From Trichoplax sp. H2 (lineage: Eukaryota), in the NCBI GenBank assembly GCA_003344405.1, contig NOWV01000119.1:62001-126000 (forward strand): a DNA stretch of 64,000 nucleotides. Reading direction: 5' to 3'. A program made the translations under genes and the position numbers. The notes under the pieces were generated by a model. The model was not told the DNA's origin. It was given only the letters and a program-made list of their open reading frames with translations, and made no database searches. This document shows, piece after piece, positions 1,357 to 40,413 of this stretch. How positions within the stretch are numbered: the stretch's first letter is position 1; each line of letters begins with the position of its first letter.

Positions 1357-2000
1357 ATACAGTACAGTACACTGTATAGTTGAGAATGCAATGTACTGTA
1401 CACTGTCAAAATTCATTTTTACTTTGTACTGTAGCAATTCTCGTTCTTTAATGAGTAATTACGAAGTACTGTACTGTAGACGTTGTACGAGTATTTTAAT
1501 GACGGATTCATGTAAATCAATTCTTTCTCTATCGACTGATACGAAATCTGTTATAAGATCAAATTTGTAATACAGTATATTTCATTTTCACAAAAATCCA
1601 TAAATATTAGCCCTTCCACCCTTCCACCCTGCACTATACTGCAAACTGTGCAATTCATACAGTACAGTATAGCAGAATGATTCCTTTAATGACTACTGAC
1701 GGTAGTAGGCTGTAATAGTACGTAGCCTATAAAATGGCCAATTTTGTCGAAATAGAGATCGTGTCTTCAACATCAATTTTAATATTATACGTCCAATAAG
1801 GGGTTTGTTTGACTCCGTAACTAATCACTAGAGACCTTCTTCTAAGTGTACATATATAATAATCCTCTATTACTGTAAAAAATTCCAATACATTATTTCG
1901 CCAAAGTTTTGCCAACAATGAGAATTATTGACCGAGCAGCTACTGCACAGTACCCTGTAGTACAGTACAGTACAGTATACAAAGTAGTACACACAGTCCA
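1357..2000. promoter_or_regulatory. TAC(A/T)GTA-rich motif clusters upstream of LAMTOR2
   Basis: Repeated TACAGTA/TACTGTA units at about 1357-1480, 1655-1670 and 1940-2000, including TACTGTACACTGT at 1394-1406. The regulatory role is inferred from position. Confidence 0.5.
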
Positions 2001-2425
2001 GTAGCTTGAGTGCATTACTTTGATGCAGAATTCTCCTCTAGTCATCATCGGGAATTGTTGACTTGCACATAGGGATTCGGCAAGCATTGTGTACCAGCAA
2101 TCATAAGACAGAAAATAGAATTGAATCATTACGTTAACTCGTTGAAGTTATGGTTAGTTACCGAGTACACCATACAGTAATCAAAGTACAAAAAGGGACG
2201 CTATACAGCTCGTCAAGCTCACAGGCCCAGACAGGATTTGCTGTAAGAATTTTCCTCCAAGTATCCCTATTCCTGTGAGGTCGAAAACTGGAATATGTAC
2301 TGCTTACTGTAGTTAGTTTGAAAGTTTTTTTTATCATATTCACGGAGGAAAGAATGACAACACGGAGTTGACTAGCGACTAATAATTCATCAAAAAGGAC
2401 AGAGGCATTCATAGCAAGGAATGGG

Positions 2426-2432
2426 AAAAAAA
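2426..2432 (-). terminator. RNA polymerase III terminator (T run) of tRNA-Leu
   Basis: An A7 run on + gives T7 on -, 8 nt downstream of the tRNA 3' end. Confidence 0.7.
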
Positions 2433-2440
2433 TTAGGCCC

Positions 2441-37400: not shown

Positions 37401-39806
37401 ACGCACGTCCTTAAACGTAATAAGACATTTAGCAGATATATACAAACTCTATTATTACAGATATGCGAACATGAATCAACATTGCAACGATTGCATCAAG
37501 TTTGCAAGTGGACTCGTCATAAGACTTAAACTTGACAGCACGACGTAAACGTATCGCGGACTTAATAATTACATTGATACAATTGGCCAGCACTAAGCAA
37601 AGCGTAACCAAGTACAGTATAATTTTTCCGTAGATTTATTCATTCCAAATTTGAAATTTCAGGACTTACCGGTTTCTCTCGGGCAACTATAGTCGTAGGC
37701 TCCGGTAGCTGTTTGTATCAATCAAAATACAGTATAAAAAAATTGGCTATGACCATTTAAATCAATATGATAATTCATTAGCCAAGAACAACAAAATCTA
37801 ATGTTGGAAATAAAATTGCAATCTCAAGTAATCAGTTTTAACAGTAACGTATACTGCATACATAAGGTATTAACTAATGTGCAGTAGTGAGCTTGCCATG
37901 TATATGATATGAGACAGAGTGTGATCGTACGCTACAATACAAATTACTTTTGGTCATTTAATAGTGGGACTCATTAAGATAGATATCCGCTTAGCAGTCG
38001 TTATAGGTAGCTTATTATTATTAAATATGATTATCATTAGCATACAGTAAAGATTACGAATACAAGTAAGCAAGATTCACGTAACTTTAAAAATTTGTTA
38101 CATATTTTGTGTCAATACTGTATAGTGTGAGATATCGAGCTATCTAACTTGATATTCAGTAAATTCTATCTACCTGTATCATGATTATACGTGTAATAAG
38201 ATAAGACAGTTATGTCAGTCAACTGAAAACTATCTCTGGTATTTAATTTACATAATATCATTATTGTCGAGTAAGGAATAATGTAGCATCTGAACGCCGA
38301 TTTCTTTCATTGCACACATTATTAATTGATTACATGGCTTGCACTATATCCACATAACCACATATTGTATACCGTAGCCACAGGAATTACAGAATTGATC
38401 AAGTACTAGATAATTCTGTCAATCACCATGAAAAAGTTGCAAATGATATCATTGTCTAAGTTACAGAATATCAGAAACCTGTTCTTTGTGCATGCTACCT
38501 TTTGATGAAAGAGGTTTCAAATTGATATCATGACCTAATTTACTGTACAGAATGATATTAGATCAGAAACCTGTTCTTTGCGTAGGCAACTTTGATGAAA
38601 AGGTTTCAAATGATATCATTACCTAATTTGCAGAATAATATTAAATCAAAACTTGATGTTTGTGTGTGCAATTTTTTCTATATCTAAAGTAAAGTATAGC
38701 TCTATTCTCATAGATTTAAGGATTGAACGTGATTCATTACCACTGTAACAGTATACACCTACTTGCTAGCAACGAATTTATTATGTCTGTGCATACACTC
38801 TGAAACTATAGTACTGTCTGTGCATTATAATAATAATATAAAAGACGGTCCAATAATTACATAACGCAGACTTTACTATATCGCTAGCGAGGCAATTAAA
38901 TATACGAACCTGTACCAGTAGTGCATCCTCCATTTGTTGGGTTGGAAGCTAAAATAATCAAGAATATGCAAGATTTGCAATCAGTAAATTAGATCAAAAA
39001 ATTACAAGACCAGTTCAGCATCATTATTATTACTGAAGCTAGATTCAATCATGTTATAGCTGATTTTGAACATAAGTGATGTGGATGGACTTTTGCAACT
39101 AACCTTCCAAATTTCATTGATTAACCACTGAGTATTGTCACGCGCAAGCTGCTGTAGAGAGATTTCTATATCAGACCTGTGTTACAGTATATCAAGGAAT
39201 AATTGAGGGGTAAGCAATACGTATTCAAGATCGATTCTGAATAAGACAATTATACCGATTCCCCAAAAAATAAATCCATCAATGTCATGCATGGTTCCTC
39301 GTTGGGGGAGTGTACACTTAAGTATATATCAATCATCTACTGCAATGCATGAGTTTTATATATTACAGTATGATTGTTGAAGTAGAACCAGTACACTAAA
39401 AATAGTTCAGTATAGACTGTACAGGTCGTCGATCCTTCCTTCATTGGTGCACCTATACGCTGAGCTTGATGTCATGTACTGCAGAGCTATTAATATATTG
39501 CACACACTAGAATTGAGCACCAACATTGTATCATTTGTACTTTTTGGCTCAGTTTGTATATTATGACAACCTATATCAAAAGCATAGAGATCAAGTATCA
39601 ACGTATGCATCAACATTGGCTTACTGAAGTTCTTGTGGATCCACCGGTTGTCGATCGATTAACAGTAAGTTGCCAAGGTCAACCTCTGGCAAGATATTCT
39701 TGCTGACTTCAGTGCTCTTATATCGACGAGACTGGGCTTGAAGAATGCTATCCACATTAATGACCGTCTTTCGATCTTGGTTGGTATGCAATTTACTTGA
39801 TTCCAT
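34486..39806 (-). CDS. RRS1: Ribosome biogenesis regulatory protein RRS1, about 15 short exons (first 39806-39625, last 34543-34486)
   Basis: The spliced translation contains [76 protein letters not shown]...KKERIAKNELQRLRN, STASHGVF and a basic C-terminal tail ending SRSKKK*. Confidence 0.93.
38428..38670. repeat. Degenerate tandem repeat (about 80-92 bp unit, about 3 copies) in RRS1 intron 3
   Basis: TCAGAAACCTGTTCTTTG occurs at 38471 and 38563, with a degenerate third copy near 38646. The block TGAAA..GGTTTCAAATGATATCAT also recurs. Confidence 0.8.
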
Positions 39807-40028
39807 CAGTTGCTTCACTATTTAAACTATGCACGATAACAATAATAATGAATTTCTAAGATCGATATACAATACAGGAAGAAATTCAAGCGATTTTAAT
39901 GCTGTCTTGCATTGGATGCATGAACTATTTCTGCTATGCCCATGCTGTAAGCTAGCAAAACCACGAGTACAGTGGAGAATGGAGTGGATTCTGTCCGTCC
40001 GAAACTTGACAGGACTAACATGACGCTA

Positions 40029-40413
40029 TACTGTACACTGTACAGTACATTGTACAGTACAGTACGTACTGTAAACTACGTTTAACATACAGTACTGTAC
40101 TGTAGAGATACTACAGTATACAGTACTGTACAGTACAGTATCTCTACTGTATGTTAGATATCTCTGTAAAAATATTTCTTGCAATTACATATGGCGCAAG
40201 TACAGTACTGTACAGTACTTATAGAAACCGGCGTTTTTCAATACAATAAATAGAGAGTTAGTAGTTAGTTTTGCAATAACTTCAACTACGAGTTCAATTT
40301 CTTGTCTCCATGCTTAGATATACAGTATTGTCAGTGTATATCATTGAGTCTAGAACCAACTTTCAATACAGTTGTTCGTATTAACTCCGCTGTACAGTGT
40401 ACAGTGTACAGTA
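40029..40413. promoter_or_regulatory. Dense TAC(A/T)GTA array upstream of RRS1
   Basis: There are many TACAGTA/TACTGTA units at 40029-40220, with TACTGTACACTGT at 40029-40041 and its reverse complement at 40401-40413. Confidence 0.55.

Follow-up and report, generated by a model that had tools for sequence, protein, structure and literature searches.

Our subject is a 64-kb window of the genome of Trichoplax sp. H2 (GenBank assembly GCA_003344405.1, contig NOWV01000119.1, positions 62,001 to 126,000 of the forward strand) and the clusters of a short unit, TAC(A/T)GTA, that it carries. These arrays take up the intergenic DNA 5' of genes with constitutive expression, namely LAMTOR2, tRNA-Leu, a GOSR2-like gene and RRS1, and they are the (ACAGT)n repeat already known from Trichoplax. 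Judged by its letters, the unit is the exact sequence of the canonical excision footprint of Tc1/mariner transposons, a comparison that is new here. We would give an even chance to the view that the arrays were made mainly by a mutational process directed at open promoters, most likely the iterated insertion and excision of a Tc1/mariner-type element, followed by some slippage. Counts, tests and scans of open reading frames (ORFs) were made within the window, and positions are numbered from its first letter.

The true unit of the arrays is the 7-mer TAC(A/T)GTA, whose copies are chained through a shared TA with a period of 5 bp and sometimes of 7 bp. TACWGTA occurs 94 times in the window where 13.05 occurrences are expected, which makes real the clusters that a preliminary description of this DNA had seen around a recurring 13-mer, ACAGTGTACAGTA. 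Counted in bins of 500 bp, there are 19 occurrences in the bin at 40000 and 6, 7, 2 and 4 in those at 1000, 1500, 2000 and 2500. The longer GTACWGTAC is found 15 times (0.30 expected), in every case within 1362-2634 or 40040-40218, that is, in the two intergenic regions. Successive GTAC are spaced by 5 bp 15 times and by 7 bp 5 times, and overall the spacing in the arrays varies between 4, 5 and 7 bp. Tandem Repeats Finder likewise reports arrays of period 5 and period 7 at the cluster sites, those of period 5 being at 1959-1977 (3.8 copies, 100% matches), 40040-40140 and 40199-40218, and perfect tandem ACAGT longer than 12 bp is also present in the chains at 1358-1369, 1467-1478, 40053-40064, 40088-40104 and 40119-40140. 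The first part of the densest array (40027-40070) gives an impression of the construction, as it reads TA-TA-CTG-TA-CACTG-TA-CAG-TA-CATTG-TA-CAG-TA-CAG-TA-CG-TA-CTG-TA. In each of the 15 GTACNGTAC the centre base is A or T, and 38 of the 39 three-nucleotide fillers of the form C..G are CAG or CTG. Read chain by chain, the centres are AA, TT, AAA, ATT, ATAA and ATA, with no regular alternation of unit orientation. Nearly all units in the promoter arrays are perfect, and the arrays are self-complementary to a degree that gives them a strong hairpin or cruciform potential (minimum free energy -39.2 kcal/mol versus -25.4 +/- 3.1 in shuffles, z = -4.41). Weak groups of TACWGTA are also seen at 7207-7342, 30601-30974 and 37613-38122.

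Since a run of (ACAGT)n is a chain of TACAGTA units, the observation of the 13-mer and its clusters is a rediscovery of a repeat that was published in 2010 and again in 2024-25, and it does not amount to a new promoter code. In T. adhaerens, according to Wang et al. (2010; PMC2871265), pentanucleotides make up 7,233 of 11,697 microsatellites and ACAGT accounts for 78% of them, an abundance unprecedented among eukaryotes. In their survey 54% of the ACAGT repeats are found no more than 1 kb upstream of a gene and 85% no more than 5 kb, translation (ribosomal proteins) and protein modification are over-represented among the genes concerned, and the authors suggest that the repeats may be transcription-factor binding sites. 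The window arrays agree with that repeat in the pentamer, the tandem form, the position within 1 kb upstream and the translation or housekeeping type of the genes. Their survey took perfect repeats of more than 12 bp only, and the mixed A/T centres, the single 7-bp units, the 7-bp spacing and the inverted pairs are undescribed in the available parts of that paper. A repeating ACAGT was later recovered de novo from T. adhaerens Micro-C data by the Chimaera neural network (10.1101/2024.11.14.623548, PMC12817080). This is the same repeat, tied there to predicted contact-map features (insulation or fountains) as a model-derived association, with no mechanism or origin proposed in the available text. 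A link between the ACAGT repeat and excision footprints was not found in the literature searched: in the accessible portions, the words "footprint" and "excision" are absent from the Wang and Chimaera texts, as is "microsatellite" from the latter, and in Kim et al. (2025; PMC12221973) "excision" is absent and "footprint" concerns profiles of the assay for transposase-accessible chromatin (ATAC) only.

The canonical footprints of Sleeping Beauty, a Tc1/mariner transposon, are 5'-TACAGTA-3' or 5'-TACTGTA-3', in which the terminal 3 bp of the transposon remain between two TAs (PMC6943129). The window unit is like this footprint in its identical 7 bp, its A/T-ambiguous centre, its flanking TAs, the gain of 5 bp and the imprecise variants, shorter and longer, that are to be expected, and the units found here combine TA, CAG or CTG, and TA, with an A/T-only centre and with TA sites that have no other sequence context. 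They differ in that a Tc1/mariner footprint is known as a single scar at its donor site; arrays or a dominant genome repeat made from such scars were not found in the literature searched. In the mechanism that we propose, a cut-and-paste transposon of the Tc1/mariner type that targets TA and ends in CAG...CTG would have been repeatedly inserted into and excised from open promoter DNA, each cycle turning TA into TA-C(A/T)G-TA with a gain of 5 bp. The centre base would be A or T at random and independently at each scar, and re-insertion at either TA of a scar would yield TACWGTACWGTA, that is, chaining at 5 bp. Imprecise end-joining would leave five-nucleotide C...G fillers such as CAGTG and CACTG, and slippage would afterwards lengthen some of the runs.

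Three sets of counts are consistent with such scars. The first concerns units that stand alone. In the 62,008 bp outside the clusters TACWGTA occurs 56 times, against 12.2, 16.8, 22.4 and 31.2 expected under Markov models of orders 1-4, and it is the most over-represented 7-mer there (z = 7.1; the next has 4.4). These isolated units, seven of which lie in the body of the gene for a class-C G-protein-coupled receptor (GPCR) at background density, carry at most 0.12 bit at each of the 24 positions that flank them and nothing left over from units next to them; they are neither decayed arrays nor ends of transposons. Sequences one mismatch away from the unit are in mild excess as well (355 versus 294.1), as expected for older scars in decay.

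The second set concerns the centre base, for which a metagenome scan with GTACWGTACWGTACWGTAC served as a control of slippage arrays. It matched 114 loci (GC 0.34-0.66 among the 80 listed), none of them recognised as placozoan, which held 231 arrays from other organisms with homogeneous runs of up to 41 units. Adjacent units in these (GTACW)n arrays have the same centre in 884 pairs and a different one in 39, whereas in the window 5 of 13 pairs switch between A and T, compared with 39 of 923 in the control (Fisher p = 1.8e-4). For chains of at least three units the count is 5 of 9 pairs (p = 2e-5). Variation in the control arrays takes the form of A>G and T>C (77 of 1,263 units), and a C or G centre is found in 0 of 21 units of the window. 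The third set concerns the fillers of five nucleotides delimited by TA, which have the form C...G in 11 of 20 cases within the clusters and in 8 of 506 outside (p = 5.8e-13). This is what would be expected if the bases adjacent to TA survive imprecise end-joining.

Several points weigh against an origin by excision. Neither a transposon with TA|CAG ends nor a transposase was found in the window, where all 294 stop-to-stop ORFs of at least 45 aa were scanned against Pfam (0/294). Transposable elements (TEs) make up 0.13% of the T. adhaerens genome, with only 11 mariner/Tc1 and 6 MuDR fragments and none active (PMC2871265), and with so few remnants even a very extensive activity in the past would need to have left little other than scars. 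Among nine indels between the run contigs described below and the window, none is a 5-bp CWGTA, so there is no sign of recent events. We know of no strong promoter targeting by Tc1/mariner elements, and the isolated units do not have a Tc1-like extended target preference. The 5 adjacent unit pairs of the first region are all homogeneous in their centre, which means that slippage also acts, and the form C...G is not enriched among fillers of 2, 4 and 6 nt, contrary to what an unbiased end-joining spectrum might give. Lastly, a 7-bp palindromic protein-binding site would equally show sharp edges and a degenerate centre, the near-perfect units of the promoters could reflect selection, and the strong self-complementarity of the arrays could matter for function. 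With these points taken into account, an origin by Tc1/mariner-type insertion and excision, considered alone, falls slightly short of an even chance in our estimate. The wider proposal, that the dominant repeat of placozoans, with its thousands of promoter arrays and its excess of single units, consists of the excision scars of an almost vanished Tc1/mariner-type element with a preference for open constitutive promoters, is possible, and we put it forward tentatively.

The alternative that survives best, which we consider unlikely, is that the arrays are a cis-regulatory code under selection, in which multimerised GTAC/TACWGTA sites would be bound by a putative architectural or activating protein, mark constitutive promoters and shape three-dimensional contacts, with the origin of the sites being secondary. 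In the 1 kb upstream, LAMTOR2 has 14 TACWGTA units, the GOSR2-like gene 6, tRNA-Leu 4 and RRS1 19, against 0-1 units for each of four genes of the cell-type kind (two GPCR and two bZIP genes), for which the preliminary description had rightly noted the absence of clusters. Integration bias would equally lead to an association with open promoters, and the arrays occupy only two intergenic regions to be set against four controls (2/2 versus 0/4, Fisher p = 0.067; p = 0.029 if the four promoters are counted singly), too little for the window by itself to support a statement on housekeeping genes. Further promoters may be missed in 18000-34000 and 53000-61000, where there are no Pfam-recognisable ORFs of at least 45 aa. 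The idea of three housekeeping promoters thus holds in that the arrays lie 5' of genes of constitutive type. It fails in the number of independent regions and in passing over the tRNA-Leu gene, whose 5' end is 63-92 bp away from the array around the second 13-mer copy and whose closeness makes the assignment of that copy to the GOSR2-like gene ambiguous.

Proximity to a transcribed region fits a regulatory code as well. Contigs of four public runs were aligned to 33501-53500, of which X19 and X20 are RNA libraries and X14 and X16 are of unrecorded library type. At RRS1 a spliced X20 contig of 1,441 nt spans 34218-39890 and an X19 contig reaches 39960, which places the first array unit (40029) at most about 70 bp past transcribed sequence; run contigs cannot show true transcription starts. 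The near-perfection of the promoter units and their hairpin or cruciform potential would also suit a code, whereas the variable GTAC spacing and the random A/T centres would be odd for a cooperative site, and selection for binding hardly explains a 2.5- to 4.6-fold over-representation of TACWGTA across 62 kb of non-promoter DNA including GPCR introns. In T. adhaerens the upstream location and the enrichment for translation genes (PMC2871265), and the effect of repeating ACAGT on the maps predicted by the Micro-C network (10.1101/2024.11.14.623548), point in the same direction as the promoter counts here, with no protein known to bind ACAGT arrays. Promoters with multimerised short units do exist elsewhere. 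In Drosophila (GA)n is bound by the GAGA factor, and heat-shock elements are pentamer arrays with 5-bp units in either orientation; the window arrays resemble both in the multimerised short unit and differ in that their orientation does not alternate regularly. To our knowledge none of the familiar transcription-factor motifs matches the repeat convincingly. A binding-site code could also be layered on an excision-scar origin, and a secondary role of the arrays as a binding platform, as a nucleosome-poor or cruciform-prone spacer or as an insulation-associated element is plausible as a prediction.

The code word that the preliminary description had proposed, a strand-oriented 13-mer marking three housekeeping promoters, does not hold up. 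Its coordinates for three copies and their distances to the start codons are correct, but a fourth copy (40401-40413, plus strand), which gives that description its own end coordinate, is not described in it. The window has four exact matches (0.00 expected from 100 shuffles), and these form two inverted pairs, one of 13 nt (1394-1406/2643-2655), spanning 1,236 bp including the tRNA gene, and one that grows to a 17-nt perfect inverted repeat. The pairs bracket the LAMTOR2/tRNA-Leu/GOSR2-like region and the RRS1 region, respectively. When up to two mismatches are allowed, 12 of 15 matches (the four exact ones included) lie inside clusters with both strands side by side. The distances to the ATG vary (207, 326 and 223 bp) and near-copies occur on both strands within one cluster, unlike an oriented core-promoter element. 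Orientation does not hold; the unit is palindromic except for its centre, and variants stand on both strands. Seven other 13-mers recur at least 4 times in the window; six are derived from the arrays, where such 13-mers recur 4-5 times, and one is an AT repeat. Around the four exact copies the sequence is unrelated, apart from a preceding GT in three of them. The 13-mer is therefore one recurrent concatenation (TA-CAGTG-TA-CAG-TA) within the TAC(A/T)GTA arrays and not a discrete oriented promoter word, and both it and its strand orientation are incidental. What can be kept of a housekeeping promoter code belongs to the repeat as such, which is reported across the Trichoplax genome, mostly upstream of genes and with an enrichment for translation (PMC2871265), and which the Micro-C model recovered. 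To the right of the fourth copy, the ORFs of 40.4-43.1 kb gave no Pfam match that would name a gene, and no relative was found for the ORF at 41500-41781 on the minus strand. Among the contig pieces listed for the RNA runs none falls between 40420 and 41800, which speaks neither for nor against a gene. Directly right of that copy stands CTGCGCATGCGAA (40468-40480), which we take to resemble the palindromic NRF1-type site of housekeeping promoters.

An inverted arrangement of this kind could also suggest that the arrays are the ends or remnants of a DNA transposon in the promoters, similar to a miniature inverted-repeat transposable element (MITE) and annotated as Mutator by the Extensive de novo TE Annotator (EDTA), with the inverted 13-mers as its terminal inverted repeats (TIRs). 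We regard this as improbable. The preliminary description had mentioned a Mutator-TIR-associated motif of placozoan loop anchors, and Kim et al. (2025; PMC12221973) do report Mutator insertions in GP1 promoters and place a loop-anchor and GP1-promoter motif within the TIRs of Mutator elements annotated by EDTA v2.1.0. Their system is like the window in the placozoan group, the housekeeping promoters and the proposed transposon link; it probably differs in the motif, whose letters are absent from the available main text and three spreadsheet supplements of that paper. The Chimaera paper names the TE-borne, insulation-linked motif of Kim et al. as repeating ACGG and lists ACAGT separately (10.1101/2024.11.14.623548). 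ACGG/CCGT is unclustered here, with 8 occurrences in 1188-2981, 2 in 39807-40800 and 155 in the 64 kb, so the loop-anchor motif is probably a different one; ACGGACGG has no occurrence in the window.

The inverted pairs themselves, including the 17-nt perfect repeat with its arms 353 bp apart, are what a transposon with TIRs would offer, but the segment 40028-40414 has no target-site duplication around it, which for Mutator would be of 9 bp or so (flanks CATGACGCT and TTTATTGGT), the other pair encloses a tRNA gene, beyond GT the four 13-mers have no flanking sequence in common, and the window ORFs include no transposase. Only a part of many run contigs aligns to the arrays (in X16 this holds for 574 of 1,036, in X14 for 171 of 317, in X19 for 59 of 86 and in X20 for 56 of 84). 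The points at which they depart from the arrays are unit boundaries (40029, 40047-49, 40088, 40119, 40140, 40199 and 40413), with an agreement of the flank consensus of 0.39-0.65 beyond the arrays; for X16, 25-53 contigs leave per junction with an agreement of 0.39-0.46. The contigs from other loci thus diverge on both sides with no conserved element body, and the arrays recur at many loci with unrelated surroundings, which counts against a transposon body and against the TE/TIR origin considered in the preliminary description. The summed contig depth is to be taken as a sign that arrays are shared between contigs and not as expression or copy number, and the single-copy pieces listed for X16 are 38820-39887, 40629-41252 and 43564-43745, the uncovered remainder not being readable as promoter enrichment. 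We would also expect palindromic arrays to mimic TIRs for a structure-based caller.

Transposon termini fit the data poorly, and so does the last and very improbable alternative, an ordinary replication-slippage (ACAGT)n microsatellite in AT-rich intergenic DNA with no special origin or role, for although perfect period-5 runs, the homogeneous pairs of region 1 (5/5) and the (GTACW)n arrays at the 114 metagenome loci speak for slippage, the arrays that it makes elsewhere are homogeneous and vary by transitions, it leaves the isolated units and the five-nucleotide C...G fillers unexplained, and the abundance of ACAGT is unprecedented among eukaryotes (PMC2871265).

If the arrays are excision scars of a Tc1/mariner-type element, this would explain how one odd pentamer came to dominate the repeats of placozoans, what places it at open promoters and why its centre alternates between A and T. 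The association with housekeeping promoters and three-dimensional contacts would then be, at its root, a passenger of integration bias, possibly co-opted later. With such an origin, a motif enriched at loop anchors or promoters of placozoans should be taken only with caution as a sign of a dedicated architectural protein, and calls of "TIR elements" in the style of EDTA on palindromic arrays would be artefacts.

Table 1. Positions of the arrays, 13-mer copies, genes and a three-copy element in the 64-kb window
Feature	Position	Strand	Remarks
Array group nearest LAMTOR2	1358-1478		TA-CAG/CTG/CACTG-TA chains at 1358-1376, 1393-1406, 1427-1433, 1466-1478
Single unit and two-unit chain	1571-1669		Unit at 1571; chain at 1658-1669
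Perfect period-5 array	1946-1977		3.8 copies (1959-1977), TA-CCCTG-TA before it
Array GTACTGTACTATACGGTACAGTGTACAGTA	2626-2655		Between tRNA-Leu and GOSR2-like genes
Two single units	2782-2809		Upstream of GOSR2-like ATG
Densest array	40027-40151		Palindromic arms 40098-40124 and 40125-40151
Three-unit chain	40199-40219		Centres A, T, A
13-mer copy 1	1394-1406	-	A-CAGTG-TA-CAG-TA on minus strand; 207 bp from LAMTOR2 ATG
13-mer copy 2	2643-2655	+	326 bp from GOSR2-like ATG; about 80 bp from tRNA-Leu 5' end (opposite strand)
13-mer copy 3	40029-40041	-	223 bp from RRS1 ATG; 69 bp past farthest RNA contig piece (39960)
13-mer copy 4	40401-40413	+	Terminates 3.1-copy run of 7-bp unit TGTACAG (40391-40412)
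17-nt perfect inverted repeat	40028-40044 / 40398-40414		353 bp between arms; bounds segment 40028-40414
LAMTOR2, first two coding exons	1119-1187 and 578-793	-	ATG 1187; PDB LAMTOR2 match, E 1.7e-6
tRNA-Leu(CAA), 38-nt intron	2440-2563	-	Rfam; ARAGORN with introns allowed (missed by default ARAGORN)
GOSR2-like SNARE gene	2981 (ATG) to V-SNARE_C exon 5521-5760	+	Pfam V-SNARE_C, E 2.8e-5, below cut-off; no PDB match
Class-C GPCR	10020-17655	-	Pfam
RRS1	34218-39960 by spliced RNA contigs	-	ATG 39806; PDB RRS1 homologue, E 1.1e-5; GT..AG-type introns
Rhodopsin-type GPCR	43117-44220	-	Pfam
bZIP gene	51918-52397	-	Pfam
bZIP gene	61340-61741	+	Pfam
Conserved element, copy 1	7350-7665	+	Three copies: column identity averages 79% across the full alignment; about 125 nt nearly identical
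Conserved element, copy 2	25591-25900	-
Conserved element, copy 3	48590-48901	+

Among the genes of Table 1 the identity of GOSR2 is only plausible, because the V-SNARE_C match is weak and there is no PDB match. For the GPCR of the window, the only relatives with a named source, at 29-36% identity, come from Trichoplax sp. H2, in keeping with a placozoan origin of this DNA. The region of this gene holds an inverted repeat of 69 nt, 71% complementary, with arms at 4196-4264 and 4911-4979 that are 646 nt apart, and this may be an old MITE-like insertion.

The window contains a further repeated element, present in three copies. A TATA-like box, GGGTATATAAGC, precedes by about 50 bp a conserved segment that starts with AACGTAGAAGCAAAGGCGTCTAAAT and includes GAG|GTAG, the Sm-site-like AATTTGGAG / AATTTAGAG and a terminal hairpin, TGTCACGAAGCTGGTTTGTGACA. 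The element has no match in Rfam at E-values up to 5, and it goes unreported in the papers listed for Trichoplax and spliced-leader trans-splicing, as far as titles and the beginnings of abstracts tell. From these sequence features it looks like a multi-copy small-RNA gene, possibly resembling Sm-class or spliced-leader RNA. Many contigs from all four runs lie on the copy at 48.2-49.5 kb; the TAC(A/T)GTA arrays were ruled out as the source of the high summed depth there, for which this separate multi-copy element accounts. Finally, a near-perfect palindrome of 38 nt with no recognised gene around it is found at 24400-24437 / 24444-24481, its arms being 97% complementary and separated by a spacer of 6 nt.

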